Position numbers and translations under genes: made by a program
Notes under the pieces: generated by a model
The model's database searches: none
What the model saw: only the letters and a program-made list of their open reading frames with translations
Told to the model about the DNA's origin: nothing
Part shown: positions 36,794 through 56,847 of the stretch, one piece after another
Numbering within the stretch: position 1 is the stretch's first letter
Layout: each line of letters starts with the position of its first letter
DNA from: an uncultured Actinomycetota bacterium
GTDB taxonomy: Bacteria > Actinomycetota > Actinomycetes > JAFAQI01
Assembly (NCBI GenBank): GCA_963770565.1
Contig: CAVYQE010000006.1
Span: forward strand, 131,395 to 195,394
Direction: 5' to 3'
Length of the DNA: 64,000 bases

Positions 36794-36840
36794 ATGGTTT
36801 CCCGGCTACCCTGCAAACCTGTCGGTGGACCTCATCGATC

Positions 36841-36913: not shown

Positions 36914-36972
36914 TGATCTGCGCAGGTCAGATGGGGTTTAGCGTGGACTGGTCGGCTCCAGTTTTCTAGGGC

Positions 36973-37021
36973 TGGCAGCCAAATTGGCAGCCAATTGGTT
37001 TGCGACGTTGTTTGCGACGTT
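36973..37021. repeat. Paired 12-bp-period direct repeats (integrase arm-type site candidates)
   Basis: TGGCAGCCAA x2 (36973, 36985) and GTTTGCGACGTT x2 (36998, 37010). Confidence 0.7.
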
Positions 37022-37049
37022 GTCGTGGTCGGTGTCAGTTTGCCCACGC

Positions 37050-38184: not shown

Positions 38185-38194
38185 CCCAGCTCCT

Positions 38195-38377
38195 CTATGA
38201 CGCGAACTGCTCGCGCAGCACCGCGATGTATGCGTCGAGTGCCTCGACCGGCACGCGGCGCGCTGCGCCGATCAGAACCGACTCGACCTTGCCGGCCCTC
38301 ATCAACTCGTACAGCTTCGAGCGGCCGATGCCAAGCACTTCGGCGGCTTCTGTGGGTGTCAGAAGCATCCTGTTCAT
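38195..38377 (-). CDS. Excisionase / HTH_17 DNA-binding protein
   Basis: LLTPTEAAEVLGIGRSKLYELM...RRVP; GAGGAGG RBS. Confidence 0.9.
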   Translation of the reverse strand: MNRMLLTPTEAAEVLGIGRSKLYELMRAGKVESVLIGAARRVPVEALDAYIAVLREQFAS

Positions 38378-38407
38378 AACTTCCTCCTCGGTTGGTGTGG
38401 CGTCCAG

Positions 38408-41036: not shown

Positions 41037-41112
41037 GACGACCACCCCGCACAAGCGCGGGATCGCTGCCTGAGGTCTTCCCTGATCTGCATGCCGAGAC
41101 CGTGCCGGGCGG

Positions 41113-41350
41113 GCGCACCACAAACGTCACCACGAACCCGGCTGGTCCGCACCACCCTTCCGCGGTGCGCACCAAAAACGTCACCAAAAACGTCACCACC
41201 GCGTGGCCCGTCACCGCCCGCGCTCCAGCAGCGGGCGAGGTAAGGGGTAGCGGGGACCTGAACGAGCGAGCTCATGGGCCGCAGGATCAACCAGGGACGT
41301 ACCCCCAGACGTACTGCTCGACGTACCGCTAGACGTACCCCCAACGTAGA
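41113..41350. repeat. 12-bp-period iteron-like repeats upstream of the relaxase (oriT/arm-site candidate)
   Basis: CACCAAAAACGT-type units at 41113-41199; (G/A)ACGTA at 41296, 41308, 41320, 41332, 41344. Confidence 0.75.
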
Positions 41351-41498
41351 AATCGGTCGAGGGCGCACTATCGCGGCGCGATGGTCATACCGCACCAGGC
41401 GCCGCGAGGCCTCCCTGAAGTTGTCCACCGATCGGCCGGCGAGATGGAGCCGACGGACATTGGGGGTGGATCGTGAACGCAGACCTGAAGGAGCCAGC

Positions 41499-41693
41499 GT
41501 GGACGACGACCCGACGCGTGAATATCCATGGCTCGCCGAGCGCGACCAGCGATTCACCCTCGCGCTGGTGCTCGACGTTGCCGAGGTCCTGACCCGCCAC
41601 GGCTACCCGGCGCCGACCGGGACCACCCTCGTCGACCTCACCGCCGGGCTGCACCACGCCCTTCACGGGTACCGGCCGCCATCGCTGTACTGA
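41499..41693 (+). CDS. Small hypothetical protein (64 aa)
   Basis: AAGGAG RBS before GTG; LVLDVAEVLTRHGYP. Confidence 0.55.
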   Translation: MDDDPTREYPWLAERDQRFTLALVLDVAEVLTRHGYPAPTGTTLVDLTAGLHHALHGYRPPSLY

Positions 41694-41706
41694 GTCGCCA
41701 CCACGA

Positions 41707-41818
41707 CCGACGACCGACGACCGACGACCGACGACCGACGACCGACCACCGACCACCGACCACCGACCACCGACCACCGACCACCGACCACCGACCACCG
41801 ACCACCGACCACCGACCA
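41707..41818. repeat. 7-bp tandem repeat, 16 units: (CCGACGA)5(CCGACCA)11
   Basis: Counted directly. Confidence 0.95.
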
Positions 41819-41853
41819 CCCCATCCCCCGGACACAGTGGTATCGGGATACGG

Positions 41854-42381
41854 GTGTCCCGTGGTGCGCTTCAAAGGGAGGTTGCGCACCACGGCACCGG
41901 CCGGGAAACTGCACTGGTGACCGGCAACACGAAGACGAAGTTGGACGCTCGCGCAGAGACGCTGAAGGGTCTTGCCAGCGGTGGCGATCTTGACGACGCG
42001 CACGAGGCGTTGGCCCTGGCTGCGATCCGAAGCCGAGACGCCCAGCCCTACCTCGAGGAGCTCCTCGACCTCGCCACCGATGCGTACGTGCTGACCGGTG
42101 CGAGCCCGGATCAGACGGTCGAACTCGCCGGACTAGCCGAGCGATACCTGCCGGAGTATGAGTACAGCGGCAAAGTCGACCACCGAAACCTGCGCTACGC
42201 GTTGACCTACCCAGCCTTGCGCGCTGGCGGACTCAATCCTGACATCTGGGATGACGTCGTCTACTGGCGATCCCAGGTCTGGCCATACGCCCAGCAGGCG
42301 GTCCTCGCCTACCTGCGGATCGCCGCCGCGCGCACCGGGACGTCCGTCGAGGACCTGGCCAAACTGCTCCAGGACCCGTAG
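41854..42381 (+). CDS. Hypothetical protein (start uncertain)
   Basis: Helical, GC3-biased ORF. Confidence 0.6.
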   Translation: MSRGALQREVAHHGTGRETALVTGNTKTKLDARAETLKGLASGGDLDDAHEALALAAIRSRDAQPYLEELLDLATDAYVLTGASPDQTVELAGLAERYLPEYEYSGKVDHRNLRYALTYPALRAGGLNPDIWDDVVYWRSQVWPYAQQAVLAYLRIAAARTGTSVEDLAKLLQDP

Positions 42382-42504
42382 CCGAAGAGCGGCATCGCGG
42401 AGATCCGTCGACATCGTTGGGTGAGCGAGAACGGCACCTATCGCGCGGTACAGAAGCCGATTGGTGAGAGCCAACCTTCAGAGGCTTGACTACGTCACAC
42501 TGTC

Positions 42505-43110
42505 ATGATGCGCATCACGTCGGTGGCGGCCGCATGCGTCGCGGTGTGGCTCCTCACCGGGTGCTCGGGATCGGCGTCGGGACCGACCCAGACGCCGCCA
42601 ACGTCGACGCCACGGGCCACGACGGCCCGGACAACGGCACCCGTTGGCCTCGTCGATACGCCTCTGTCGAGGTGTGCTCCGGCGGTGGTCGCGATCACCA
42701 TGGATGCCACTGGGCACGTTGTCGACAATCACGAATCGGCGTACGTCCTCGGATTCCGCAACCGTTCGCGACGCGCCTGTGCACTCCAGGGCTACCCGTA
42801 CCTGCGCCTGACACGTACCTCCGCACCACGTTCATGGACTCGCGTTCACCCATCCACAAGGTGGCCATACCCGCCGATCGTCGCTGGCGCCACGAGCGCA
42901 CTCCATTCCGAAAGCGTGGCCGTCGCGGCGGGCGGCACCGCCTACGCCTATCTCATCGTTGACCGGGGAGCGGAGTGTGGCGCTAGCCTCTCGGCCGATC
43001 TGCGCGTCGGAACTTCGCGGGCCTCGGCATCCCTGATCGCAAGGAGGAATGTCGGCGTCTGCCGTGGCGACCTGATCGATCTATCGCCCTACACCGAACT
43101 CCGCGGCTGA
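42505..43110 (+). CDS. DUF4232-like lipoprotein
   Basis: Lipobox LLTGC, Pro/Thr linker, FRNRSRRACALQGYP. Confidence 0.75.
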   Translation: MMRITSVAAACVAVWLLTGCSGSASGPTQTPPTSTPRATTARTTAPVGLVDTPLSRCAPAVVAITMDATGHVVDNHESAYVLGFRNRSRRACALQGYPYLRLTRTSAPRSWTRVHPSTRWPYPPIVAGATSALHSESVAVAAGGTAYAYLIVDRGAECGASLSADLRVGTSRASASLIARRNVGVCRGDLIDLSPYTELRG

Positions 43111-43159
43111 GCGATCCATACCGCGAGTTCGAGTGCTATGTATCGGCGCTTCGGCGTGC

Positions 43160-43579
43160 CTACCCAACGGGGCAGATCAGGACGACTCGCGCGACGTGAC
43201 CCGCCACCACGTTGACACGCTGGGGAGGCGTGGGCCCAACATGACACGGCAACTTCTTGAGCGCGATCGCGCTCAATGCGTAGCGACCGGGTCGGAGCGC
43301 GAAGTGGAACCTGCCGGTCGTGTCGGCGTGTGCGGAGGCGACGACGCGCCCGCCAATCGTGTGCAGCCTGACCGTAACCACGCCCGGTAGCGGGCCGCCC
43401 GAGCCACCATCCGGCCCGGCTCCCGCTCTGAAACTACCAACGACAGTGCCGAGCGCAGGGCTGGTTGGTTCGGCGACAGGGCTCGAAGCGGGCGCGGCTG
43501 CGTGAGTGCAACCAGCGACCAGCGCGGCCGCCGCTGTGGCGGACGCGGCCCATCCAACCCTCACTCGCATGGTCTTCAT
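43160..43579 (-). CDS. Lipoprotein with carboxypeptidase-regulatory-like (prealbumin-fold) domain
   Basis: LVAGC lipobox; ADTTGRFHFALRPGRYAL. Confidence 0.7.
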   Translation of the reverse strand: MKTMRVRVGWAASATAAAALVAGCTHAAAPASSPVAEPTSPALGTVVGSFRAGAGPDGGSGGPLPGVVTVRLHTIGGRVVASAHADTTGRFHFALRPGRYALSAIALKKLPCHVGPTPPQRVNVVAGHVARVVLICPVG

Positions 43580-43620
43580 GGTGATACGACGCCCCGTGCC
43601 GGTCAATCGTTCCCCAGCGG

Positions 43621-43648
43621 CGCGGACAGAACGCCGGTTATGGTCGCT
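43621..43648 (+). other. dif-like site (left of SIR2-like gene)
   Basis: CGCGGACAGAA-CGCCGG-TTATGGTCGCT. Confidence 0.55.
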
Positions 43649-43809
43649 TTCAGATCGGCGGCGGCCAACGGCTGAAGCCGGCCTGTGTCATTCCGTGGGG
43701 TCTGTCATGCTCGTCGATCTCCTCGTACCTGATGACGCTCCTGTGGGCCGGCACGCCAGAGCCGGCAAAGCAGCCGGGTCGCATTACCACCAAAAGAAAT
43801 GACTGGCCG

Positions 43810-45013
43810 TCAGGGCAGGTCGACGTGCTCGATTGGCTCCTCGGAGAAGTCGCCTACTTCAGGGTCGCGCTCCACCCATGGCGCTTTACCCGCCAAGACC
43901 AAGTCGATCGCTGCCTCACTCTCACCCGGCCGCGCCGAGAACAGACCCGAGAAGCAACTGCCAAGCAGCCTGTAGCGATTGAACTTCGAGGTAGGCCACA
44001 GCTGATCAACTGTGTGCTTGGCGGCATCCTCGCTTTCCGCAACGACCGTCACTGGGGTCGAGTGCCGGATCGTCTCGTGCAGGAGCCGCAAGAAATGACG
44101 CTCGGCTCCTCGCCATCCGATGACGAGAACCTCGGTAGCTTCCGCGATCGCGACCCTCATGTGCTCGATGTGGACCGCAGGTGCCTCGTATTCCTGCTTA
44201 TGGACGGTCGGGATCGCAAGCGCTGGAATCCATATCGCGGTACTTCCGCTTCGATCTGATGTATCGATTGGGCCTGCCCAATCCCGAATCGCATAGTGGT
44301 TCCTCACCGGTTGGATCGTCGCCAGCTAGACAATCAATCAATGTCGTTCTCGGCCTGCACGCCGCCGTCATCGCCGTAGGACCGGGCCGCTGCCAATCGT
44401 CGGAATGCACGGCTGCCTTGCGAAGCCAGTTCACCGATCCGTGTGGTTTGAAGAGTTGGGAGTCGGGCCGGGACGTGTAGTCCTCGATGGTGCCGAACCT
44501 GGCGTGCAGCACGTCCGTCAACGCGCGGTCGATCAGGGTGTCGTAGTTGAAGGTCACTATGCGGACTGGAGTTGCTCGGGCGGTCTCGTGGTAGTGGCGT
44601 GCGAGCCGGTCGATGAGCGTGAGGTAGTTGGTGACGTGATTGAGTTCCTCGCGCCAACGCTCCTCGACACCACCGATGGTCCAGCGCAGGTAGTACCGGA
44701 TGGCCGCGAGTTGAGCGTTGGCTTCCGAACCGAGGAATCGCTCGTCGCCGAGGCGCCCTAGACCGTCCTCGACCGAAATGCCCTCCTGTACCCAGGCGCG
44801 AAGACGGTCGACGGCCGGAGCGGCGCGCGGGTATCGAGCAATTGCCTCAAAGTACGGCGTTTCGGACGGATGCCACTCGAACAAATCCTTGGCTAAGGGT
44901 GGCCTGTAGTACTCGAAGTCTGCGCTGACGGCGTATCGCCCATTGCCTTCGATCGGGAACTCCCGGCCGCCGTCGTAAGAGGCTCCCGCACCTGCGATGA
45001 CGAGCAAAGTCAT
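43810..45013 (-). pseudogene. SIR2-like (SIR2_2) NADase-domain protein, split by one frameshift near 44260-44310
   Basis: VIAGAGASYD, IVTFNYDTLID, LFKPHGSVNW in ORF 44198-45013; IPALAIP and VLVIGWRG in ORF 43810-44307. Confidence 0.8.
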
Positions 45014-45213
45014 ACCGCAATCGTGTCACCCGGGGACGACACGTTCCGTCAGCTGAGCGCAGACGCGGCGGCGAGGTCACGCAGCCGAGGGTCGAGCGGC
45101 GGCGCCGGTTGTTGAGCGCACTTGAAGATCGGGGGTCGCTCGGCGCGGGATTGTGAACCGGTCGAACCGGCGCGGGTCTATGGAGTTGCCCCCGCCGTTA
45201 GCGTGTCGACCGA

Positions 45214-45241
45214 ACCGAACATAACCGGCGTTATTCGACGG
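45214..45241 (-). other. dif-like site (right of SIR2-like gene)
   Basis: Minus strand CCGTCGAATAA-CGCCGG-TTATGTTCGGT. Confidence 0.65.
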
Positions 45242-45275
45242 CCTGTCCGAGCCCTCTGGCTGCGAGGATGAGGTC

Positions 45276-45650
45276 ATGCCCCGTCTCACGGTCGTCACAT
45301 CGTTGTCGGATCGGGAGTTGAACGGGCCGACTGCTGAGGATGTCATTGCCGCTATCCAGGCACTGCACGGTGACGGCGAAGTCGGACTCGGAGAGCCCAC
45401 CTCCATCTGGCTTGGTATCGCCGGTGGCCCCGACCGCTACTTCGTCGCTTACGCAGACGCACACGCTGGACTGACCTTGCAGGCGCGGACCGAGACGACC
45501 GGCGGACAGCCCGTCGAGGCCCTCATTGGCGGCCAGTCGACGACATTGCCGCCCGCGTACCTCGTGTCCATCGACGTGGCAACGTCGGCGGCGCTGCACT
45601 TCCTGGAAACGCAGGAACCTGCACCGGCCGTCACGTGGGACCGGATGTAG
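45276..45650 (+). CDS. Imm1-like immunity protein
   Basis: IGGQSTTLP...VSIDVA..AALHFLETQEPAPAVTW C-terminal pattern, recalled from the Imm1 family. Confidence 0.65.
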   Translation: MPRLTVVTSLSDRELNGPTAEDVIAAIQALHGDGEVGLGEPTSIWLGIAGGPDRYFVAYADAHAGLTLQARTETTGGQPVEALIGGQSTTLPPAYLVSIDVATSAALHFLETQEPAPAVTWDRM

Positions 45651-45705
45651 GAGAAGTGCCTGTTCGCGATCGCGTTTCGCTTCGGAAAAGGGCAGGATCT
45701 ATCTC

Positions 45706-46044
45706 ATGCGCCCACTCTCCGAGGTCGAGCGTGAGGTCCTGAATGTGATGCTTGCTGGGGACTTCCCCGGCGCATTCGAGTTACGTGGCCAGGTGGACGC
45801 GGCACGCGTGTCGCGTCGATGCGATTGCGGCTGTCCGTCCGTCGACCTGGTGGTCGAGGGCGACGTTCCGCTAGCTCCCGTCGTGAGCCGCACGCCGGTC
45901 AATGCCAATGTCGATGGGGTTCTTGGGGGCGGGCTGATCGTCTTTGTCGATGATGGCCGGCTGTCGGGCTTGGAGTACTACACCTCCGAGGATCAGACAC
46001 CTGGCTCATTCCCCGACCTGGGTCAGATCCGGCCTTACTCCTAG
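45706..46044 (+). CDS. Small hypothetical protein with CxCGCPS motif
   Basis: MRPLSEVER...CDCGCPSVDL...IVFVDDGRLSGLEYY. Confidence 0.75.
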   Translation: MRPLSEVEREVLNVMLAGDFPGAFELRGQVDAARVSRRCDCGCPSVDLVVEGDVPLAPVVSRTPVNANVDGVLGGGLIVFVDDGRLSGLEYYTSEDQTPGSFPDLGQIRPYS

Positions 46045-46196
46045 CAGCGCCGAAGTGCCGTTCCGCGACGTACAGTCTCGGCGCTACGTCACATCCCGTC
46101 GCTGGGCATTGTCGGAGCCGCAGAGGTCCGGACACGGCTTGGTTGGCCACGGTCGCGGATCGGGACGGGGCGCTTCCGGTTGAGTTGTCCTTTCTA

Positions 46197-47582
46197 CTAC
46201 CCGGATGCGGCGGTGCATTGCGTCCAAAGGGCGCTTTGGCTGCCGGGCTTGGCTGTGGAAACGCCCAGCGCGAGGACGGTCTGGTCGTTGGCGACGGTGA
46301 TCGCGGACAGACCGCCGGGCAGTGTGACCGGTGCTGAGTTCGCGGGCGTCGTCCAGGAGGTGCCGTCCCAGTGCATCAGGAGCGGGCCATGCTGGGAGCC
46401 AGCGACCCATAGGTCGCGATCGGTGACGGCGCTGAGGCCGTTCAGCGTCGCGGCGGTGGACAGGACGGTGTCCCATCGCGTTCCGTTCCATCGCATCACC
46501 GAACTCGGACCTTGCCCACCCCAGCGCGTTCCGTTGGGCGAGGTGGCCAGGGCGGGGCGACGGATCGCAAAGACGCTGCGTCCTGCGGAGGAGATGGCGT
46601 CCAGCGGGACGGAACCCGTCGGGGTTGGTTCGTCGACCCAGTTGTTGCCGGTCCACGTGCCGAACAACGCGCCGTCGAAGCTGAAGCTCTCGCCGCCACC
46701 GTGCAGGTGGCCGCCCACCGCCCACGGGAATCCGGTGGCAGGGTCAATCGCGACTGCGGTGAGCAGTGAGATGGAGCCGAGCCCGGACGTTGAGGAGGGC
46801 TCCGGAGCCGCGACACGAGTCCAAACCTGACCGTTCCAGTGCAAGAGACGGTTCACGTAGGTGGCGCCGTTCACAGACGCGTTGCCGACTGCCCACACGT
46901 CATCCGATGACGTACCGGCGACACCGACGAGGGTCTGTTCGTGGTGCCGGCCAGCATTGGCCAAGGCAGGGACCGGAGTAAGCGACCACGACACACCGTT
47001 CCAATGCTCAACCAGTGGCCCGTTGCGCATCGTCGGGGTCTCAGCTTCAACGCCGCCGACCGCCCATGCATCGGTCGAGCTAATGACCGTGATGTTGTAC
47101 AGCGACCCCGGTAAACGGTTCGGGTTCCCCACCGGCACGACCGTCCACGCCCGGCCGTCCCAATGCTCGATCAAGGGGTAAGGCACCTGGCGCGGTCCCG
47201 AACTGTAGGGCGAATCCACCCAACGCTCACCCACCGCCCAAACGTTGCTTGAGGAGGCCGCCCCGATCGCGAACAGGCGATGCTGGCGATCCCCAGCAGC
47301 GAACGGCTCCGGCGCGAAATGCCAACCCGATCGACACGCCACGATCGGCGGGGACACCTGGTGTGTTGGTCCTGGGTTGTCGCGGAGCGCCAGAGGCACG
47401 AGAACCACCGCGACCGCCGTAATGACAGCGGCGACCGCACAGACGGCGAGCGTCTGCTGTCGGCGCCCCCGCCCCCGCCCGCGGCTAGCAGCGACGATCC
47501 GCGCCATCGGATCGGGCCAGGTCGGCAGCGCCCAGTCGTCGTCGTGGAGGACCCGGCGAAGCCGGTCGTCGAGATCGGTCAC
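46197..47582 (-). CDS. Membrane-anchored beta-propeller protein, probable anti-sigma partner
   Basis: DLDDRLRRVL N-terminus, single TM, WAVG / HWNG repeats; coupled to sigma factor by ATGA overlap. Confidence 0.75.
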   Translation of the reverse strand: MTDLDDRLRRVLHDDDWALPTWPDPMARIVAASRGRGRGRRQQTLAVCAVAAVITAVAVVLVPLALRDNPGPTHQVSPPIVACRSGWHFAPEPFAAGDRQHRLFAIGAASSSNVWAVGERWVDSPYSSGPRQVPYPLIEHWDGRAWTVVPVGNPNRLPGSLYNITVISSTDAWAVGGVEAETPTMRNGPLVEHWNGVSWSLTPVPALANAGRHHEQTLVGVAGTSSDDVWAVGNASVNGATYVNRLLHWNGQVWTRVAAPEPSSTSGLGSISLLTAVAIDPATGFPWAVGGHLHGGGESFSFDGALFGTWTGNNWVDEPTPTGSVPLDAISSAGRSVFAIRRPALATSPNGTRWGGQGPSSVMRWNGTRWDTVLSTAATLNGLSAVTDRDLWVAGSQHGPLLMHWDGTSWTTPANSAPVTLPGGLSAITVANDQTVLALGVSTAKPGSQSALWTQCTAASG

Positions 47583-48106
47583 GGCAGTGCTCCTGTCAGA
47601 TCGTCGCCGGCGCCAGCGACAGGCGCGAGGACACGTTCCAGATGCGCGATCGCGCGGGATGCGTGGCTCTTCACCGTTCCGCGCGAGATGCCCATCACCG
47701 CCGCGATGTCCGCTTCGCTCAGGTCCGCGTAGAACCGCAGGACAATCACCGCTCGCTGCTTCGCGGGAAGGGTCGCCAGAGCCCGCACGATCGCGTCACG
47801 TTCATCCGACGCGCCACTCGGATCCTCAACAACCGACGCGACCACCGTCAGCGTCGATTCCTTGCCGCTCGATCGCCGCCACCAGGAGGCGTAAGAGTTC
47901 ACCATCACCCGGCGGACATACGCCGACAGGTCCTCGATCGCAGGACCGGAGCTGCGATGGGAGACCACCGACCACGTCTTCACGAGAGCCGTCTGAACCA
48001 GGTCCTCGGCCGTCGACGGGCTCCCCGTCAACACATGTCCGAAACGGAGGAGCGCAGGCAACGCCGCGCCCGCCCAGCGCGCAAACTCCACCTCGTCCTG
48101 CGCCAC
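47579..48106 (-). CDS. ECF RNA polymerase sigma factor (SigE-family)
   Basis: AEDLVQTAL, AYVRRVMVN, LPAKQRAVIVLRFY, GTVKSHASRA. Confidence 0.93.
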   Translation of the reverse strand: MAQDEVEFARWAGAALPALLRFGHVLTGSPSTAEDLVQTALVKTWSVVSHRSSGPAIEDLSAYVRRVMVNSYASWWRRSSGKESTLTVVASVVEDPSGASDERDAIVRALATLPAKQRAVIVLRFYADLSEADIAAVMGISRGTVKSHASRAIAHLERVLAPVAGAGDDLTGALP

Positions 48107-48403
48107 ACCCGCCTCCGATACCCCTTCACCTACGATGAGCCATCGGAGCGTCGAACGGTTGTCACACCCACCAAGATTTCTTCCAAAAGCGACACGTCCG
48201 CGCTGTCGTCAAAGGACGCGAAGCAGTCCTTCGATGCCTCTCGAGCATTGTTGTGACCGTCGGTTAAGTGCCGATATCGTCCGCGACGATGGTCGGCACC
48301 GTGCCGCAGAGGTGATGCCATAACGGAGCGGGGCCTCCCGCTCCTGTGAGTACCGCAGGAGACTGCGGTTGCTCATAAACCCACATGGTGAGGGAGGCCA
48401 CCA

Positions 48404-49450
48404 ATGAGTGACGGTATCGCTAGGAAGAAGCAGTTCGTCGGCGTCGACCTGCATCTGCACCGGTCGGTGATCGTGCGGATCGACAACCGCGGTCGCGAGC
48501 TCGAGTGCGTGCGGATCGACAACTCTGTGTCCGGCCTTGTCGCTGAAGTGGCGAAGGCTGGGCAGGGTGCGCCGGTCGCGATCGAGGCGACATATGGCTG
48601 GTACTGGGCGGTCGACGCGTTGCAGGCGAAGGGTTTCGAGGTGCATCTCGCGCACCCGTACGGGATGAAGCAGATGCGGAAGCGGCGCCGGGTGAAGACT
48701 GACCATGCGGATGCGCTGGAGTTGGCGCGGCTGATGCGGCTTGGTTCACTGCCGGAGGCCTACATCGCCCCGGTCGAGCTTCGGGAGCTGCGGGAGCTGG
48801 TCCGCCACCGCCAGCAGCTGACGAAGGTCGCGACCTCAACCAAGGGCGGGATCCGCGCCGGGTTGGCGAAGCACGGGATCCGTCTGCCGGTCAGCAAGCT
48901 GAACACGGTTGCTGGGTCGGATCTGCTCGATGAGCTACGGCTTCCGGGCTACTACGGGCAGCGGCTCGCCGCGCAACGCCGGATGATGATGCTCGTCGAA
49001 GACGAGCTGGCTCGGGTGGAGCGCGAGCTGGACCGTCGGTTGAAGACCGACCCGGACTACCGGCGGCTGCAGAGGATCAAAGGGATCGGTCCGATCCTCG
49101 CGGCGGTGTTCGTCGTCGAGATCGGTGATGTGAGCCGGTTCCGCAACGCGGCCGCGATCACCTGCTGGGCCGGGCTGACTCCACGGGTGCATGAGTCCGA
49201 CCGGCGCCGACACGACGGCTCGATCAGCAAGGAAGGCTGCGCCCTGGTCCGGTGGGCCGCAGTCGAATCGGTGCAACGCCAATGCGAACCAGTCATCCGA
49301 GCCGTCCGGGACGACATCCTCGCCCGCCGCGGGAAGAGAGCGAAGAACACCGCGAAAGTCGCCGCCGCCAGGCGGATGCTCGAGGTCGTCTACTACACGC
49401 TGCGTGACGGTGAGGCCCGTTGCCTGACCAAGCCGGTCGCCGCCGCGTGA
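48404..49450 (+). CDS. IS110 family transposase
   Basis: VGVDLH, IEATYGW, KTDHADA, IKGIGP, AGLTPRVHES. Confidence 0.95.
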   Translation: MSDGIARKKQFVGVDLHLHRSVIVRIDNRGRELECVRIDNSVSGLVAEVAKAGQGAPVAIEATYGWYWAVDALQAKGFEVHLAHPYGMKQMRKRRRVKTDHADALELARLMRLGSLPEAYIAPVELRELRELVRHRQQLTKVATSTKGGIRAGLAKHGIRLPVSKLNTVAGSDLLDELRLPGYYGQRLAAQRRMMMLVEDELARVERELDRRLKTDPDYRRLQRIKGIGPILAAVFVVEIGDVSRFRNAAAITCWAGLTPRVHESDRRRHDGSISKEGCALVRWAAVESVQRQCEPVIRAVRDDILARRGKRAKNTAKVAAARRMLEVVYYTLRDGEARCLTKPVAAA

Positions 49451-49815
49451 ACACCGTCAAGACTTCGTGCGGGTCGAAGTAGCGGCATGACCCACCCTCG
49501 GGTGCGGTCGACGAAGTGAATGACCCCACGACCCTGGAACCCAGGGACGCTCGCACGGCTTCATGCTGACCACCACGTCGCGAAGGGATGCCTGACAGCA
49601 AACTGGCTGTCGCCGAGCTCTGCCATTTCAAACTGAAGCCGAACCTGACAACCACATAGCGACGCCGGCAACACAGTCTGCGTCAACCACGAGACGGCCT
49701 CAACACCGTTCGTCCTCGCGCTCCGCGCTCCGGGCGCTGCGTGTTGACCCCGCCCCGCGATCGACGCCGCCCTTGATCTGCCGACCATCGCCGAAGAACG
49801 CTCAAAACAAACAGT
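49451..49815 (+). ncRNA. Candidate bridge/seekRNA in the IS110 right non-coding end
   Basis: ~380 bp structured non-coding end with AGCGGCAT (49481) and AGGGATGCC (49584), matching target and donor junction. Confidence 0.55.
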
Positions 49816-49870
49816 TGACGGCCCCACTCCGTTCAGGGATGCCGTTCTTCGATGGAGAGCCCTGGCGCTA

Positions 49871-50993
49871 GTGTCGCGCGTCATTAGTTCCTTTACATTG
49901 GGGTGAGTTCGCGTCATGCTGTGGCATGGCGCTGTTGACTGCAGGTGTGCAGATCCCTGAGGCGGACCGGGCGACGCTTCAGAGCTGGTCTCGGTCGACG
50001 TCGATCAAGGCCGGGCTGGTGACTCGGGCCAGGATCGTCCTTGCTGCCGGTGACGGCTTGGGCACGACCTCGATCGCTTCGAAGCTTGGGGTGTCCAGGC
50101 CGACGGTGATCCAGTGGCGTGAGCGGTATGCCGCCGAAGGCTTGGCCGGGCTGCAGGACGATCCGCGGTCGGGTCGGCCGAAGACGGTCGACGACGCGGC
50201 GATCCTGGCGATGACGCTCGACCCGCCGCCGGAGCGCCTTGGGGTGACGCACTGGTCCACCCGCCTGCTGGCGGCGGAGCTGAAGGTCGGCGATGCGACC
50301 GTGGCGCGGACGTGGCGCAAGTACTGCGTGCAGCCGTGGCGGCGCGGGACGTTCAAGTTCAGCACCGACCCTGAGTTGGTGGCGAAGGTCCACGACGTCG
50401 TCGGCCTCTACCTGAACCCGCCGGAGAAGGCAGTCGTGCTCTGCGTCGATGAGAAGAGCCAGATCCAGGCACTCGATCGGACCGCCCCGATCCTGCCGAT
50501 GCGCCCAGGGCTGCCGGAGAAGGCCACCCACGACTACAAGCGCAACGGCACCGCGACCTTGTTCGCCGCTCTAGAAGTCGCGACCGGCAAGGTCACCGAC
50601 GCCGTCTATGAACGGCACGGAAAAGCCGAGTTCCTCGCGTTCATGAAGCAGGTCGCGAAGGCCTACCCGCGACGTGAGCTCCACGTCGTGCTGGACAACT
50701 ACCACACCCACAAGCACACCGAAGTCCAAGCCTGGCTAGCGAAGAACCCTCGCGTCACCTTGCACTTCACACCCACATCGGGGTCGTGGATGAACATGGT
50801 CGAGATCTTTTTCGGGATCATCACCCGCCAAGCGATCCGGCGCGGCAGCTTCGCCAACGTCAAAGAACTCATGGTCGCGATCAGCCGCTTCATCGACGGC
50901 TGGAACAACCGCTGCCACCCATTCACCTGGACAAAAACGGCGGACGAGATCCTGCCTCACGCCACCCGTCAAGCAACTTCAGACGCGCGACAC
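49871..50993 (+). mobile_element. IS630-family element
   Basis: IRs CTAGTGTCGCGCGTC / GACGCGCGACACTAG with TA duplication in CTAG. Confidence 0.92.
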
Positions 50994-50996
50994 TAG
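49926..50996 (+). CDS. IS630 family transposase
   Basis: RSGRP, THWS, VDEKSQIQALDR, LDNYHTH, SWMNMVE. Confidence 0.95.
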   Translation: MALLTAGVQIPEADRATLQSWSRSTSIKAGLVTRARIVLAAGDGLGTTSIASKLGVSRPTVIQWRERYAAEGLAGLQDDPRSGRPKTVDDAAILAMTLDPPPERLGVTHWSTRLLAAELKVGDATVARTWRKYCVQPWRRGTFKFSTDPELVAKVHDVVGLYLNPPEKAVVLCVDEKSQIQALDRTAPILPMRPGLPEKATHDYKRNGTATLFAALEVATGKVTDAVYERHGKAEFLAFMKQVAKAYPRRELHVVLDNYHTHKHTEVQAWLAKNPRVTLHFTPTSGSWMNMVEIFFGIITRQAIRRGSFANVKELMVAISRFIDGWNNRCHPFTWTKTADEILPHATRQATSDARH

Positions 50997-51034
50997 TTGG
51001 CACATGCTGACTGTCGGTCGGGCAGAATCTACGT

Positions 51035-51520
51035 ATGGCCCTCGCCAAAGTGGCTGCAACGCTGAGGGTGGCTGGGGCGATGTCACTTCTGGTCGTGCTA
51101 GCGATAGCAGCGATCGTGGTTGGTGTGGTCTTCCTTGTCCGCGGACCGTTGCGGCACGCGAGCGACGTCGTGCCGTGCCTTGGCTGTGAAAGCCAGGCTC
51201 TCGTCGTGCAATCAAGCGCCAATAGCTGGGGTTCGCTCGCTGTCGTCCACTACGGCGCGGCGCTGCAAGGGCACTTGCGGTGCGTGATCCCTGCCAGGGA
51301 CGCGAACCCGAATGGCCGGTTCTACCCGGTCACTTGTCACGGGGTCACTCGAGCAGGCGTGCTCGTTGAACTCGACGGAACGCACGCTGGCATCGAGGGA
51401 AACGACTACGAGTATCTGTCCGGCCAGTGGACACTCGCTGTGGGATTTGTCAGCCATCAGCTGTCGTGCCTGCCCTCGAACTGGCACCATTCTCACAACT
51501 GCGAGCAGACACCCGGGTAG
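51035..51520 (+). CDS. Hypothetical membrane-anchored Cys-containing protein
   Basis: N-terminal TM; leaderless-type CAGAAT 6 nt upstream of ATG. Confidence 0.6.
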   Translation: MALAKVAATLRVAGAMSLLVVLAIAAIVVGVVFLVRGPLRHASDVVPCLGCESQALVVQSSANSWGSLAVVHYGAALQGHLRCVIPARDANPNGRFYPVTCHGVTRAGVLVELDGTHAGIEGNDYEYLSGQWTLAVGFVSHQLSCLPSNWHHSHNCEQTPG

Positions 51521-51632
51521 CCTCCTGACACAGCCCAGGCGGATCTAGCCGACCGGCAGACACCTCGTTTGTCAACGGGCAGAGGTGCCGCTCGCGAGCA
51601 GATTCTGACTGACGCAGGCGGGTGAGGCCAAG

Positions 51633-52421
51633 ATGCGACATGCTCTGGGAGTGAACGACGGACCGAGCGACCCTGAAGATGATGAGGTCGACCGTGTGGA
51701 GCGGTTCGTTTCCGAGGTCGTGGCCTGGGAGCTAGCGCTTGGCATGGGGATGGGCCGTGAACTTCGGGACATGCCTTCGTTGATCGCCGACGAGTTGATG
51801 CGATCGCGCGGCCTTGACATTCGGGGCACGGCCAGCCTGGAGGATTCTCCTGCTGAGGACGCGCTTCCCTGGCCCTGGCCTGTGGTGCGAAGGGTTACTC
51901 ATAACGAGGTGACCGACACTGCTCACGTCGAGCTGGGCAATTTCAACCATTCAGCGATGATGCCGTCCATCCCGCACCAGGTTCTCGAGTTTCGGACCCC
52001 GGACGCTGGCCGGATCCTAGTTCGCCTCGAAGACGGTGACCGGATCGGAAGGATCGAGATCTGGCCGGCGAGCAGGCTGCTGCCCCGCGACGTGTGGAGC
52101 GAGTTCACCGAAGAACTCGACACGGATGGAGAACCGGAAGGCGTGGTGGTACCGGACTCCGCCTTATTGGACCGCCCCCAGGTCCAGATCGATGTTCACG
52201 TCACCTTGCCAGACCGTGACGACCGGGTGGTCGAGCTCCGCGCTACCCACGACGAGGGCACCGACATACCCGCCAAGATCTACCGCGATGGTGACAGGCT
52301 GATGATCTCGATTCTCGGACAACCCGGCGGGACTCCGAGACAGTACACAGTCAATCAATTCCTCAGGGCGATCGTGCAGGCAACTGGCGTACTCACCGAA
52401 GCCCCAACGCCCAGCGCATAG
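51633..52421 (+). CDS. Hypothetical acidic protein
   Basis: ORF lies between two repeat sites; its TAG is inside the downstream site. Confidence 0.6.
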   Translation: MRHALGVNDGPSDPEDDEVDRVERFVSEVVAWELALGMGMGRELRDMPSLIADELMRSRGLDIRGTASLEDSPAEDALPWPWPVVRRVTHNEVTDTAHVELGNFNHSAMMPSIPHQVLEFRTPDAGRILVRLEDGDRIGRIEIWPASRLLPRDVWSEFTEELDTDGEPEGVVVPDSALLDRPQVQIDVHVTLPDRDDRVVELRATHDEGTDIPAKIYRDGDRLMISILGQPGGTPRQYTVNQFLRAIVQATGVLTEAPTPSA

Positions 52422-52483
52422 GTGCCGCTCCAGGCCAGTAAACCCGGCGTTCTTCAGGGCTGACTGATGGGATGATCGTTGGC

Positions 52484-52753
52484 GTGGCCGCCGAACTCCA
52501 CCGCTACTGGATAACCCTTGCTGACTCTGGCCGCGCCTCACCTTTGGGCTACGGCATAACTGCCTACGACGAGGCGGACGCACGGTCGATCTTGAGTTTC
52601 GTGGCCTTCGACGGCGAGGCGCCCGAGATCTCGGAAGTCAAAGTCGATGTGGACGTGCGGGATCTTGACCAAGGTCACGTCATCCCGAACATGAACCCGC
52701 CCAACTGGCGCGGCATCTGGTACCCGAAGGGCCTTGACCGCCACCGGCCTTAG
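52484..52753 (+). CDS. Small hypothetical protein
   Basis: LGYGITAYD...DVDVRDLDQGHVIPNM...RGIWYP; GATGAT 7 nt upstream of GTG. Confidence 0.75.
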   Translation: MAAELHRYWITLADSGRASPLGYGITAYDEADARSILSFVAFDGEAPEISEVKVDVDVRDLDQGHVIPNMNPPNWRGIWYPKGLDRHRP

Positions 52754-52798
52754 CCGCGCAGAGGTGCCGTTTACCTATGCCGACCGTCCGCCTGTCAA

Positions 52799-53262
52799 GG
52801 GTTTGTGTTCTTTTCGTTCTTGTTCTTCGGCGTCGTTCTCGCAGGCGCGTTCCTTCTGGCGGGCGGAAACGGGGTCAAGGTGGAGCGCCCTACTGGACGA
52901 ACGACCTTGACGCCGGCGCCGCCCACCAGATTCTTGTGCGCTGAGAAGAACGCCAGGTGTTTGTTCGTTAGCGCATGGCGTGTCCTCACCGGTCGTGGGT
53001 CTGATTGTGTCGACGGTTGACGGTGAGAGCGCCGCGGGCGCCCAGGCTTACCTTGGCGCGCGGGCGCGTGCTGCGCCCGGTCACAAGAGGAGTGATGGGG
53101 TGCCCCGCGACGGGCATGAGGGTGCGGCCGTTCAATCTAGTACGGGTCGTCCAGCCGGGGCTGGCGAACAACGGCATATTGGGAGCTGGTCGCACCGGTC
53201 CCTAAGGTCCTCGGTGGTGGGCTGGTAGGCGGACACGGTCACCGTCCCTCGTCGTTGGTTTG
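52799..53262 (-). ncRNA. Candidate bridge/seekRNA in the IS110 element 2 non-coding end
   Basis: ~490 bp non-coding end downstream of tnp; minus strand contains ATGCCGTT (53170-53177), resembling the target. Confidence 0.45.
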
Positions 53263-54294
53263 CTAGGTGGGAATCTCGATCCAGGCCTGGTCGCCGAGCG
53301 CACGTAGCCGGTGGTGACAGCGGCGTGCGAGTTTACGGGCGACCGACAGCCGCGCTCGACCGCCACCGATGCGATGAGCCAATCGCAGGTAGTAGCCGTT
53401 GTCCGGGCTGGTCTTCTTGTGGGCATGCAGCGCGCCCTCATAAAGCGCCCAGCGCAGCACTGGTGGTCCTTGGCGGGTGAGCCTCGGGCGGCCACGGTTC
53501 TTGCCGTCGGAGTCATAGACGGAGATGTCCAGTCCGGCGTGACGCACCGCTTGTCTAGACGCGGAGAACCGGCGGGTGTCGCCGAGTTCTTCCCAGACCA
53601 TCGTGGCGAGCAGCGCACCCAACCCGTACTCATGAGACAGCTCCCGCGGTCCGGGATGACGGCGACCAAACGCGGTGAGCTCCGCGCGCAGCGGCACCAG
53701 ATCGGCGTCGATCGCCGCGATCATCCGCACCGCCACGTCAACAGCCTGCGCGCCGGCCGGGGACAGGTCCGGATCGTCAAGCCCGATCTGCACCCGGTCT
53801 CCTCGCAACAGCTTGCCGTCAGGCTTGGGCACGCCCTGATGAAAGAAAGTGGCGTGGATCCGTTTCTGCCATGCCTGCTTGCCCTGGACCAAATCCAGAT
53901 ACAGCCGGACCTTCTCCCGGATCTCCAGGACCTGCCGCGGCGGGATCCACGAGTCGTGGATCTCACCCTTCTCCAGTTGCTCCCGAAGCTTGCGTGCATC
54001 GATCCGGTCGGTCTTCGCCCGCTGCTTACGGCTTCGTGCACCGGCCGCCTCGGCCGGATCAGCGACATGCACCTCGGCGCCAGCGGCGAGACATTCCTCC
54101 GCGATGAACCGCCAACCGGTGCAACCCTCCACCACCAGCTCGACCTTCTTCTCATCGAACTGAGCGAGCCACTTACGGAAACCGACCCGGTCCGCCGGGC
54201 TGATCCGACCCCGCCCAGACTCCCCGTTATCGCAGTCCACCCAATCGAAGGTGATCTGTTGCCGATGAATGTCCAACGCTCCTACGATCGCCAT
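53263..54294 (-). CDS. IS110 family transposase
   Basis: GALDIH, VEGCTGW, KTDRIDA, AGLDISVYDS; GGAGG RBS. Confidence 0.93.
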   Translation of the reverse strand: MAIVGALDIHRQQITFDWVDCDNGESGRGRISPADRVGFRKWLAQFDEKKVELVVEGCTGWRFIAEECLAAGAEVHVADPAEAAGARSRKQRAKTDRIDARKLREQLEKGEIHDSWIPPRQVLEIREKVRLYLDLVQGKQAWQKRIHATFFHQGVPKPDGKLLRGDRVQIGLDDPDLSPAGAQAVDVAVRMIAAIDADLVPLRAELTAFGRRHPGPRELSHEYGLGALLATMVWEELGDTRRFSASRQAVRHAGLDISVYDSDGKNRGRPRLTRQGPPVLRWALYEGALHAHKKTSPDNGYYLRLAHRIGGGRARLSVARKLARRCHHRLRALGDQAWIEIPT

Positions 54295-54423
54295 ACCCGG
54301 ACCTCCTCCAGCTCCTGTTCGAGAACTGCACCTAGCGCAGATCCTTCTCTGTGCGGAGGGGGTCCGGCATATGTCCGTTACTTCACATGGTTGACCCTGC
54401 AAACAATGCGTGAGTAGCGGCAC

Positions 54424-54744
54424 CTATTCGACGCCCTGCCAGGTGATCAGAACGGCGTTGCCGCTTCGGTCGGGTCGACGTAGCGCGGCGAGTGCAGCCG
54501 TGCGCGCCTCCTCCACGTCGTTGTTACCCGACGGTCGGTAGTCGCTCCATGCAGTCTCAAAGAAGTTGCCCTGGTCGTCGTATTCGCGCAGGTCGAGTCC
54601 CAGAACCACCAGACCCGTGTCGGCCAGCGCGTTGATCGCACGTTCGGCATTCTGCGCGTGCCACCAGACTTCGCCGTTGGCGTCCACGTTCGCGGCGGCG
54701 GCAACCTCGTGTGGAAGAGAAGCCAGATCGTCGACGGTGGACAC
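54424..54744 (-). CDS. Small hypothetical protein, Imm40-like by eye
   Basis: GEVWW...AINAL...VVLGLD pattern; TAGCGT 6 nt upstream of GTG. Confidence 0.6.
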   Translation of the reverse strand: MSTVDDLASLPHEVAAAANVDANGEVWWHAQNAERAINALADTGLVVLGLDLREYDDQGNFFETAWSDYRPSGNNDVEEARTAALAALRRPDRSGNAVLITWQGVE

Positions 54745-54785
54745 GAGTGCACGCTAACGCCGGGTCTCGCGTGCGCGAACGGCAC

Positions 54786-55004
54786 CTATTCGCTCGACGC
54801 ATCCTCGACCGCGACCACGTCCTCGGCGTCAAACGGGAGTTTCTCGAAGCCCGCAACCCGAATGATCTCGTGGCCCCACGCAACGGTCACATTGTCGAAC
54901 GTGCGGCCATCTGTGAGCGTGACCCTGATCGTCTGCGCTCCCATGTGAGTTTCTGGAAAACAACTCACCGCTTCGCCCAGATCCTGCGGCAGTCGATTGG
55001 TCAC
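54786..55004 (-). CDS. Small hypothetical protein (72 aa)
   Basis: PETHMGAQTIRVTLTDGR; TAG inside a repeat site; AATAGT 6 nt upstream of GTG. Confidence 0.65.
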   Translation of the reverse strand: MTNRLPQDLGEAVSCFPETHMGAQTIRVTLTDGRTFDNVTVAWGHEIIRVAGFEKLPFDAEDVVAVEDASSE

Positions 55005-55101
55005 GCCGTCACTATTGCGGATCTTGGCTTGTTGAGCCAATGCACGGTAGCGCCGGCTCGGCACGGATCGTTCGGGGCCGCTCCTGCGAACAGAGTGGAT
55101 C

Positions 55102-56847
55102 TTATTGTCCGTTGCCGTCCGTCCTGATCCACGCCGTTGGCAGTTCCCCATGAACGAGAAGCCCGTCGCCAACACGTAGGCGTCGTAGTAGGTCGGCCGG
55201 CGCGTACGGCACTGAGGTCGCGACCCGCTGCGCTTCCTGCCCGCCACCCGGATCAAGCAGCTGAGGACGCGTTAGGTCAGCACGGACGTGTTCGTTGCCA
55301 ACGAGAACGCTCAAGTAGTCGGTGGTCGTCGTGTCGGTCAGCCCACTGGGATAGAACAGCTTGCTTCGGTGGTTGGTCAGGACGCTGTCGGCATCACGGC
55401 CGTAGGCGGTGTCGAGCTGTGCCCGTGATTGCCACACGGTAACGAGTTGGATACCGGCCCCGCTGACGGTGGCTGCCCACTGCGGGAGCTTTGGTAGTGG
55501 CGTGTTGGCCGCTTCGTCGCAGACGACGAGCAGACGTGGGTCGAGCGGCGTGCCGCGACGGTTGTACGCCGAGAACGCGTCGCTGATCAGGTCGTGCAGG
55601 ACCGCAGCGAACACCAGGCCGATGCGGCTGTCGTCGCCGAGGGGCGCGACGAGGTAGAGCGTGTTGGTGCCGGCGAGCAGCCAGTCGAGGGTGAGCTGAC
55701 AGTCTTCCGCACTGTCGGCGATCACCGGATCAGCCCAGGGCCAGACGGCGTTGCGGGCGGTGGCGTAGACACTGCTGGTGGTGCGCGGGTCGCTGCTCCA
55801 CTGGCCATGCAACCAGCCTTGGACTTGGGTGGCGGCGAACGCGACCTGCGGATCATCGTGGTCGGTGAGCAGCCGGACCAATGGTGCAAGGGTGCCGCCG
55901 CTGCCGTCGCCGGGCCGGTCCAGGTCGAGTACCCACCGGACGACGTGACGCATCGTGTGGCCGTCGGTGTTGGCTGCGGTGTAGAGCATGCCGGCGAGGA
56001 GCTGTTCGGCTTGGCCCCGCCAGAACCGGTCACCGGCCGTGCTGTCGTCGGCTCCGGTGCGGGCGAGGATCGCGGCCGCGTTGACGGCACCGGACAGCGT
56101 GCGGGCGGCGCGTAGCGGGCTCCACGTGCTGGACGGGTAGCCAGTGACGCCGAGCGGGTCGAACACACGGACCTCGCCGATGCGCTGGCGGGCGTCAATG
56201 GTGGCGCGAAGCAGGTCGGCTTTGACGCTGGAGACGATCGCCGGGCCGGTCCAGGCGCTGACGCCAGTGATCAGGCCGGTGGTCTTGCCGGACTGGCTAG
56301 GTCCGAACACGGCGACGGCTCCGGCGACACCGCGTCGGCCGCGGTGGCTGGACGCTTCCGTGGACAGGTAGCCACGGCCGTGACGGGCGAGCACGAACCG
56401 GTTCGGTTCCGGGCGCCGGGCGTAGAGCGGGGTGAGGTCGCGGCGGGTGGCGAGCCGCGGTTGGGTCGGTACCCCGAGGCGGCGCCGCTTGTCGATCGGG
56501 ACCTGCCGGTTGCGACTCACCAACGACAGCACGGCGAACCCGGCAACGGTGAGTGCTGCGAGGACGAGCGCGGTGGCGATCCAGTACAGGACGGGCCCGG
56601 GCAGGTTTCCGCGTACCCGCACCGGCCAAGCGACAGCAGGGTCGCCGAAGTGGTGAACCAGCCTGGGCAGGGAGCGGACCGCGTCGACCGGGCTGGCGTG
56701 CAGCAGCCTCGCGCGGCCGAGCAGCGCGGCGAGGGTGCCGATCAGCCATTGCACGAGGCCGATCGCGAGGACCGCACCGAGGAGAAGCGCGATGGTTAGA
56801 TCGATCCCATCGGCGCCCCTGGACCGGTTGGCCGTGGAGCGGGTCAT
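55102..56847 (-). CDS. TraG/VirD4-family type IV coupling protein
   Basis: 2 TM, GPSQSGKT, SSVKAD, VFDP, WSPL, DEAAN, WQSRAQL. Confidence 0.9.
   Translation of the reverse strand: MTRSTANRSRGADGIDLTIALLLGAVLAIGLVQWLIGTLAALLGRARLLHASPVDAVRSLPRLVHHFGDPAVAWPVRVRGNLPGPVLYWIATALVLAALTVAGFAVLSLVSRNRQVPIDKRRRLGVPTQPRLATRRDLTPLYARRPEPNRFVLARHGRGYLSTEASSHRGRRGVAGAVAVFGPSQSGKTTGLITGVSAWTGPAIVSSVKADLLRATIDARQRIGEVRVFDPLGVTGYPSSTWSPLRAARTLSGAVNAAAILARTGADDSTAGDRFWRGQAEQLLAGMLYTAANTDGHTMRHVVRWVLDLDRPGDGSGGTLAPLVRLLTDHDDPQVAFAATQVQGWLHGQWSSDPRTTSSVYATARNAVWPWADPVIADSAEDCQLTLDWLLAGTNTLYLVAPLGDDSRIGLVFAAVLHDLISDAFSAYNRRGTPLDPRLLVVCDEAANTPLPKLPQWAATVSGAGIQLVTVWQSRAQLDTAYGRDADSVLTNHRSKLFYPSGLTDTTTTDYLSVLVGNEHVRADLTRPQLLDPGGGQEAQRVATSVPYAPADLLRRLRVGDGLLVHGELPTAWIRTDGNGQ

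Follow-up and report, generated by a model that had tools for sequence, protein, structure and literature searches.

The subject of this study is a series of small genes, and a short conserved site with GTGCCG at its centre that recurs at their ends, in a 64,000-nt stretch of DNA (the window) from an uncultured Actinomycetota bacterium (assembly GCA_963770565.1, contig CAVYQE010000006.1, positions 131,395 to 195,394; this genome is referred to as G000). From the order of the genes between a tRNA-Lys gene and a tyrosine integrase gene (Table 1) it follows that the sites belong to the cargo carried by one or two integrative mobilisable elements at tRNA-Lys. The tRNA-Lys end was not found a second time in the window (no attR), and the segment that begins with the tRNA-Lys gene (36840-41123) looks like a decayed mobilisable element, arranged apparently in tandem with the set at 55.1-61.7 kb, in which relaxase, coupling protein and integrase are intact. 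Among 30 proteins submitted from this and the other arrays described below, including their flanks, 22 had no Pfam hit. The original prediction, made from the letters of the window, described the region as an integron-like array of gene cassettes delimited by oriented Xer/dif-like sites. Its interpretation of the motif as a cassette site is partly supported by the results below, and we give an even chance to the reading that the sites are site-specific recombination sites delimiting mobile single-gene cassettes, akin to integrons or to the dif modules of Acinetobacter.

Table 1 Features of the window discussed in the text. Positions are those of the window; ORF, open reading frame; IS, insertion sequence.
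Feature	Position	Strand	Remarks
tRNA-Lys	36840-36913	+	
Integrase, frameshifted	37077-37930	-	
Helicase fragment	38374-38757	-	
TrwC relaxase, frameshifted	39851-41123	-	
Site GATAG-GTGCCG-TTCTCG	42430..42439	-	exact match; unoccupied isB target; two homology blocks end here
DUF4232 lipoprotein	42505-43110	+	half of two-gene module (42505..43606) duplicated in contig C2
Weak variant AAGCGCCGAT	43142..43151	-	9 nt past stop of ORF 43160-43606; membership uncertain
CarboxypepD_reg-like lipoprotein	43160-43606	-	other half of the module duplicated in C2
dif-like site ..AACGCCGG-TTATGGTCGCT	43619..43649	+	inverted partner of 45214-45241
SIR2-like gene	44198-45013		cargo
dif-like 28-mer CCGTCGAATAA-CGCCGG-TTATGTTCGGT	45214..45241	-	
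Cassette gene, Imm1 immunity protein	45276..45650	+	Pfam PF14430, 28.6 bits (cut-off 22.4)
Weak variant AAGTGCCTGT	45654..45663	+	just 3' of Imm1 gene; 2 core mismatches; membership doubtful
Cassette gene, 112 aa	45706..46044	+	no family match
Site	46053..46062	+	exact match; 9 nt 3' of ORF 45706-46044 stop
461-aa partner downstream of ECF sigma factor	46197-47582	-	cargo inside array
Extracytoplasmic function (ECF) sigma factor	47579-48106	-	Pfam Sigma70_r2 and r4; cargo inside array
Variant site AAGTGCCGAT	48266	+	genuine member; recurs in relatives
Composite gene-less unit	48266..48314	+	palindrome AAGTGCCGATATCGTCCGCGACGATGGTCGGCACC, then second core GCAGAGGTG^ holding isB insertion
isB, IS1111-type IS, 1527 bp	48315..49841	+	transposase 48404-49450; Pfam DEDD_Tnp_IS110 and Transposase_20; 3 genome copies
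isC, IS630-family IS	49868..50996	+	DDE_3 transposase 49926-50996; 29-nt terminal inverted repeats; 4 full genome copies
Cassette gene, 161 aa	51035..51520	+	no family match; N-terminus hydrophobic by eye
Site	51583..51592	+	exact match; between ORFs 51035-51520 and 51633-52421
Cassette gene, 262 aa	51633..52421	+	no Pfam or PADLOC match
Site	52420..52429	+	exact match; its TAG is the stop codon of ORF 51633-52421
Cassette gene, 93 aa	52472..52753	+	closest Atlas clusters unnamed
Site	52762..52771	+	9 nt 3' of ORF 52472-52753 stop; left half of isA-split palindromic element
isA, IS1111-type IS, 1608 bp	52772..54379	-	transposase 53263-54294 (Pfam); 3 genome copies
36-nt spacer and converging site GAATAG-GTGCCG-CTACTC	54380..54425	-	TAG of site is the stop of ORF 54424-54744
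Cassette gene, 106 aa	54424..54744	-	Imm40-like as a lead only (Atlas score 0.86 to Imm40 clusters); no Pfam hit
Site	54778..54787	-	exact match; its TAG is the stop of ORF 54786-55256
Cassette gene, up to 156 aa	54786..55256	-	no family match
Type IV coupling protein, intact	55102-56847	-	bounds the array
TrwC relaxase-helicase, intact	57214-59232	-	
Helix-turn-helix (HTH) gene	59673-60371	+	
Tyrosine integrase	60372-61739	+	domains of an ordinary element integrase

In order to assess the motif, we counted exact matches to ARGTGCCGYT and found eight in the window against 0.48 expected (standard deviation 0.69, maximum 3), a number reached by none of 100 dinucleotide-preserving shuffles of the window. 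Seven of them lie within 42.4-54.8 kb, at coordinates given in the original prediction (42430, 54416 and 54778 on the minus strand; 46053, 51583, 52420 and 52762 on the plus strand), and the eighth, at 6113, lies outside this region. The other three sites that had been proposed are variants, of which the one at 48266 is genuine and those at 45654 and 43142 are weak and doubtful; GCGCCG centres with flanks resembling the 43142 variant are also present in another locus (L039). All eight good window sites are either intergenic between the best-supported ORFs or span ORF stop codons, and sites on the plus strand come after plus-strand genes, sites on the minus strand after minus-strand genes. [quoted passage not shown] The 44-nt context of the site at 54778 is 73% like that of the site at 52420, and a search of Rfam across 41-56 kb gave no family at E values up to 0.1.

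The motif is thus above background as predicted, in the form of a local enrichment. The whole 4.43-Mb assembly holds 77 matches to ARGTGCCGYT, or about one per 57 kb, so that seven sites in 12.4 kb correspond to a roughly 30-fold local enrichment over the genome rate. The enrichment is local only: the totals of TAGGTGCCGYT in the genomes of the family do not exceed the reversed-pattern control in 36 of 36 cases.

Breaks in homology at the sites had been named in the original prediction as the observation by which it could be judged, and such breakpoints between genomes do coincide with the site. Window positions 41001-42439 match another genome (G004) with 92.5% identity over 1480 nt, and the match stops at 42439, the first base of the site. 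In the opposite direction from the same site, positions 42435-43645 (1211 nt) are 100% identical to G000:C2:463596-464805, a match that begins inside the site. A shorter match of 78 nt (52421-52498) to G003:C156:1872-1947, at 90% identity, begins at GGTGCCG and is preceded by unrelated sequence on its left side. Likewise, the palindromic unit at 48268 has unrelated left flanks across the three genomes that carry it (G000, G002 and G003), and two metagenome arrays, L191 and L211, have two kinds of site-plus-leader segment in common, in different order. We infer that these breaks were produced by site-specific recombination. The 78-nt segment shared with G003 covers the start and the first nine codons of ORF 52472-52753 (52430-52498; L031 1881-1947), and the frame in G003 comes to an end after about 20 codons, i.e. 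a conserved leader stands on different or decayed genes.

Oriented arrays of the site also occur in relatives, which supports the original prediction: they run in one direction with roughly one small gene per unit, and they are found in other genera and in metagenomes. Within the family, the arrays span four other genera (G023:C34 with 4 sites at spacings of 413-466 bp and one small gene per unit, G022:C106 with 12 sites, G013:C269 with 9 and G019:C69 with 4), in addition to a second species of the window's own genus (G003:C156 with 7 strict sites). Three metagenome arrays, L191 with 12 sites, L211 with 6 and L274 with 5, have flanks that are unrelated to each other. In these eight arrays the majority strand carries all of the sites (59 of 59), at a median spacing of 444 bp; three of the eight (L191, L211 and L274) had been found by a same-strand pair pattern, a bias that is limited to the founding pair. 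Co-oriented arrays with about one gene per unit, as looked for in integrons and in clusters of attC sites that have no integron integrase (CALIN), are therefore present. One 2.2-kb unit of L191 is an inserted DDE IS.

Wider scans were less selective. The paired-site scan of metagenomes yielded at least 120 loci, with the true arrays L191, L211 and L274 among the matches listed, and many of the paired-pattern loci are repeated coding domains with 3-nt periodicity. The 119 hits of a 15-mer scan across genome contigs were distributed over all phyla and were essentially at chance, with one locus only having three or more sites, a Sphingomonas locus with three copies evenly spaced at about 1.06 kb. 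A class-level 14-mer was counted about 157 times in 401 genomes, compared with about 45 times for the control, a rough tally for a 14-mer that can be coding; it includes one genome flagged as unpublished (G066) and carries no claim here. In 14 soil or rhizosphere sequencing runs, at most 0.17 of the sampled words were present.

With regard to the anatomy of the site, the conserved stretch extends from about -4 to +9 around GTGCCG in 55 family array sites, and the form TAR-GTGCCG-YTA, in which inner triplets are inverted around an asymmetric 6-bp centre, is present in 10 of 12 L191 sites. The original prediction had proposed a layout of two arms around a 6-bp spacer, and the three strings quoted for it are found in the sequence as written. 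In a scan of possible dyad centres, GTGCCG with a 6-bp spacer was the best of 22 (4.30 of 11 against 2.47-3.58 elsewhere), of which about one match is forced by the search pattern. The proposed layout thus finds weak support: the inner triplets are symmetric around GTGCCG, the outer arms barely so. The left-arm consensus resembles the left arm of a dif-like site in the window. Similar flanks with other centres exist (GCGCCG, GTGCAG and GTGATG), for which the nhmmer site profile was used only to collect a few examples. In 24 of 45 sites, the TAR ends an open frame that is 60 or more codons long, compared to 161 of 565 other TAR triplets on the same strands. Two other functions of the motif were considered and rejected: as a start codon coupled to the preceding TAG, the GTG would be expected to open its own frame, and frame 0 was open over 60 or more codons at 19 of 67 sites against 16 and 25 for the other frames; as a Shine-Dalgarno sequence, AGGTG is followed by start codons 33-50 nt away, as judged by eye.

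A probable chromosomal dif, ATCGCCGATAA-TGGACA-TTATGTCAAGT, is located at G000:C10:167876 on the minus strand, at a distance of about 20 kb from the Xer-like gene at C10:146785-147615, one of two such genes in this genome. The array site has only the inner TAA/TTA logic in common with it.

Two IS1111-type elements, isA and isB, are inserted in the site and may both enter at GTG^CCG. All three copies of isA in the genome are flanked by ARGTGCCGT, with an insertion point that is ambiguous within CCGTT, and all three copies of isB lie between ARGTG to the left and CCGTTCT to the right. An unoccupied paralogous site for isA exists at G000:C6:6155 of the same genome. Since this paralogue without isA shows the element unsplit, the sites at 52762(+) and 54416(-), which the original prediction had mistaken for two cassette ends, belong to a single palindromic element of about 56 bp, in which they converge at a distance of 36 bp and which is split by the 1.6-kb isA. 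The site at 42430 is in turn an unoccupied isB target, because the C2 copy of isB sits there within the duplicate of window positions 42435-43645. In both isA and isB the transposase is followed downstream by a long non-coding region, and sub-terminal inverted repeats are present, a layout that matches the IS1111 arrangement given in PMC11187229; a 9-nt stretch in the 3' non-coding region of isB is exactly complementary to the right target flank. The features looked for in targeting by the IS110/IS1111 group, i.e. the same flanks in each copy, a free site and guide-like complementarity, were thus all found, the complementarity for isB. PMC11187229 names attC sites and repetitive extragenic palindromic (REP) sequences among the known targets of IS1111-family elements, and pdif sites are described as targets of other ISs in PMC10132070. 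Arrays are present in three genomes without any IS110-type hit (G022, G023 and G019), and therefore the ISs exploit the site and do not create it.

The region with and that without isA are two paralogous stretches, G000:C2:888546-894941 and G000:C6:3297-8011, of about 4.7 kb (6.4 kb in C2, with the IS included), which are 96-97% identical and differ by isA. Both are near contig ends, beside isB copies and a common 153-bp tail.

In order to find an enzyme that could act on the sites, we searched for recombinases in the genome and near the arrays. In agreement with the original prediction of an integron analogue without IntI, an integron integrase is absent from the genome: the best match to TIGR02249 reached 77.9 bits against a cut-off of 265, and the top hits were the two Xer-like genes. 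Besides these genes, the genome carries a chromosomal dif. Candidates for the enzyme are host XerCD and a tyrosine recombinase for asymmetric sites that is unlinked to the arrays. Capture of the cassettes by XerCD or by an island integrase, as put forward in the original prediction, would be a matter of inference, and our searches gave no evidence linking the integrase at 60372 to the sites. On the five array contigs of the five array-bearing genomes there was no Pfam hit to a TrwC relaxase either.

Several observations weigh against recombination sites that delimit cassettes. The five array contigs gave no hit to the tyrosine recombinase, serine recombinase and IS110 transposase families PF00589, PF00239 and PF01548, and tblastn with eight queries (both Xer-like proteins, four integrases, isA and isB) gave none in 38 metagenome loci (239 kb). 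The outer nine arm positions score 2.96 against 2.52 in genome controls (z 2.3), a weak symmetry; the left arm is often merely the end of an ORF, and the right arm does not look like the XerD arm in the dif of this genome. Several cassette genes in the arrays are opposite to the site direction, i.e. the orientation of gene relative to site is not strict. Apart from the module duplicated in C2, no whole cassette was seen in two contexts, the compared cassettes being otherwise unrelated in DNA, and many of the segments shared between arrays extend for only 45-78 nt from the site and could equally be ends of small repeat elements. This last point leads to a reading that we regard as rather unlikely but well worth weighing, namely that the sites are the conserved 5' ends of small intergenic repeats of 35-80 bp, some of them in tandem, which resemble REP sequences or bacterial interspersed mosaic elements (BIMEs), mycobacterial interspersed repetitive units (MIRUs) or miniature inverted-repeat transposable elements (MITEs) and lie behind accessory genes. 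With a similarly modest probability, the IS1111-type elements would then use these repeats as safe targets, and the breaks would be element ends or the outcome of ordinary recombination between short repeats. Gene-less units of 51-53 bp do occur in tandem at contig ends of G015, G023 and G013, palindromic units of 34 nt similar to the one at 48268 are also found in G002 and G003, the 56-nt palindrome holds the isA target, and REPs are among the targets of this IS family according to PMC11187229; the lack of a recombinase linked to the arrays points the same way. An inverted CGGCAC is found within 61 nt in 15 of 55 sites, but it is absent from the other 40, which are without a palindrome, so that an arm core of GGTGCCG and CGGCACC with a 10-nt spacer, as in a hairpin or REP, fits the gene-less units only and was rejected as a description of the site. 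Unlike REPs, moreover, the motif has a low copy number, is restricted to accessory regions and shows no excess over the reversed control in any of the 36 genomes. Homology blocks of kilobase size have ends at the site as well, arrays on one strand with a gene in each unit (59 of 59 sites) are atypical of REP or MITE scatter, and a GTG frame that is not preferentially open speaks against stop/start coupling of the MIRU kind.

The position of the sites could also be that of an operator. Stoperators offer an analogy for asymmetric operator sites, and it is conceivable, though improbable in our view, that a regulator of the mobile element binds such sites, which would be set at gene ends along the transcribed direction, to silence or insulate the cargo. 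This would suit a short, asymmetric site in short intergenic gaps or across stops, the window sites that follow genes of the same strand, and the HTH gene that adjoins the integrase; it leaves the homology breaks, the gene-less tandem units and the variant centres with conserved flanks unexplained, and it is at odds with the cassette genes opposite to the site and with the array contigs of other genera, which have no relaxase, integrase or comparable backbone in view. That the motif reflects chance, base composition or a coding repeat, its reverse complement reading N-G-T-Y, is very improbable for the arrays. Such repeats account for many metagenome hits, where paired loci show 3-nt periodicity (e.g. 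L181, L258, L260, L173 and L189), most of the 77 matches in the genome seem by eye to be coding, and the class-level 14-mer excess may be coding as well; against this, all eight window sites are intergenic or at stops between unrelated ORFs, none of the shuffles reached their number, and the flanks of true arrays are unrelated to each other. This reading is largely refuted for the window, L031, L033, L039, L191 and L211.

Returning to recombination sites that delimit cassettes, we compared the arrays with known systems of this kind. Like the dif modules of Acinetobacter, they consist of small accessory modules bounded by short dif-type sites in mobile DNA without a dedicated integrase, with centres that differ from the chromosomal dif and with sites that are targeted by ISs (for Acinetobacter, as reported), and a real dif-like inverted pair flanks a module in this window, too. 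They differ in that pdif sites have two well-conserved 11-bp arms, whereas conservation here is limited to the 6-bp centre and the inner triplets; in that pdif sites alternate in orientation, whereas the array sites are direct (59 of 59), with only the separate pair at 43619 and 45214 inverted; and in that the carrier there is a Rep_3 plasmid, in contrast to the chromosomal island of an actinobacterium, for which a role of Xer is a candidate. With integrons and CALIN the arrays share one direction, mostly single and often ORFan genes, and a site after each gene that sometimes contains the stop; an array without a nearby integrase is possible in CALIN, and their sites are reported to be targets of IS1111-family elements. 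However, there is no IntI in this genome, the linear core of about 14-28 bp is much shorter than the folded attC of 57-141 bp, no R''/R' boxes were seen by eye, and 40 of 55 sites are without a second arm. Complete integrons were lacking in all Actinobacteria genomes of Cury et al. 2016 (PMC4889954). The rAID-1 clusters of Bacteroidales are similar in that orphan genes of the immunity type are arrayed with repetitive intergenic sequences that have been likened to integrons (bioRxiv 10.1101/471110), and the window has Imm1 plus the Imm40-like lead; but rAID-1 has a conserved XerD-like recombinase gene at its 5' end, for which there is no counterpart on the 5 array contigs or in the 38 metagenome loci, and most cassettes here are without immunity annotation.

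Repeats of the REP/BIME and MIRU kind share with the site an intergenic position at gene ends, a sometimes palindromic or tandem structure and units of about 50 bp. A MIRU is an intercistronic unit that supplies overlapping stop and start codons, and no such coupling is seen here; REPs and BIMEs are reported to be targets of IS110/IS1111-type elements, too, but differ from a site of low copy number that has no genome-wide excess, is mostly non-palindromic and ends kilobase homology blocks. As a precedent for a one-armed site, the sfx sites of shufflons, on which the tyrosine recombinase Rci acts, have a conserved spacer and one conserved arm, the other arm lying in coding sequence and being variable. 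Unlike the array sites, sfx sites stand in inverted orientation and bring about inversions inside a single gene; no Rci-like gene was found here, although no search aimed at one was made. Of the systems compared, the dif modules of Acinetobacter and the integrons and CALIN come closest. As cassette arrays at short recombination sites, the arrays are a member of neither, because the defining features of these systems, namely IntI, attC, a pair of conserved Xer arms and sites of alternating orientation, fail or cannot be shown. No description of the site or of such arrays in Actinobacteria was found in the literature searched, and a literature search with the letters of the site returned unrelated primers only.

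How such a system could work may be outlined as follows. The site would be of a core type, with an invariant asymmetric 6-bp GTGCCG between short inverted triplets, TAR to its left and YTA or YTC to its right, and with loose outer arms. A recombinase acting in trans would exchange strands within or beside GTGCCG, and the identical central region would provide the spacer homology that tyrosine recombinases require. A cassette between two direct sites could in this way be excised, inserted and reshuffled among arrays, and single-gene cassettes, many of them ORFan or immunity-like, would be stockpiled as one-direction arrays in the cargo of an integrative mobilisable element at tRNA-Lys. As a tentative extension, for which we would claim somewhat less than an even chance, actinobacteria of this family and soil relatives may have their own cassette-capture system at TAR-GTGCCG-YTA, with a recombinase encoded away from the array, either XerCD acting on a non-dif centre or an enzyme of a kind that has gone unrecognised.

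Bacteria are known to build up stocks of single genes and to exchange them at short sites in two ways, by integrons and by the dif modules of Acinetobacter. If the arrays are what we propose, they would add a third cassette system with a much shorter site and no linked integrase, an equivalent of integrons in a phylum in which complete integrons have not been found. They would offer a testable route by which soil actinobacteria acquire ORFan and immunity genes, and the site would be a sequence handle for mining cassette metagenomes. Furthermore, two RNA-guided elements of the IS1111 type would represent a natural case of convergence on one recombination-type target, and the ORF stop codon that is often part of the site would bear on how gene cassettes are created.

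A few further observations were made in the course of this analysis. The dif-like sites at 43619 and 45214 form an inverted pair that brackets a 1.6-kb module with the SIR2-like gene, and in their right arms they are similar to the XerD arm of the chromosomal dif. The C2 duplicate of 42435-43645 breaks exactly at AACGCCGG^TTATG, i.e. at a dif-like site, and there is therefore a second kind of Xer-type breakpoint in the same region. The surroundings of this duplicate, G000:C2:463040-472412, are a second accessory patch with integrase fragments, the duplicated lipoprotein module, isB and an IS630 copy, and a complete hairpin-type site is located at 468211 within it. In G015, two contig ends (L036 1-140 and L037 1-120, on contigs C75 and C100) have the same 51-bp tandem unit and are identical over 67 nt; the assembly is probably broken there inside a longer tandem array of gene-less units. 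In the window itself, about 24 seven-base units, ACGACCG grading into ACCACCG, are found at 41675-41842, just upstream of ORF 41854-42381.

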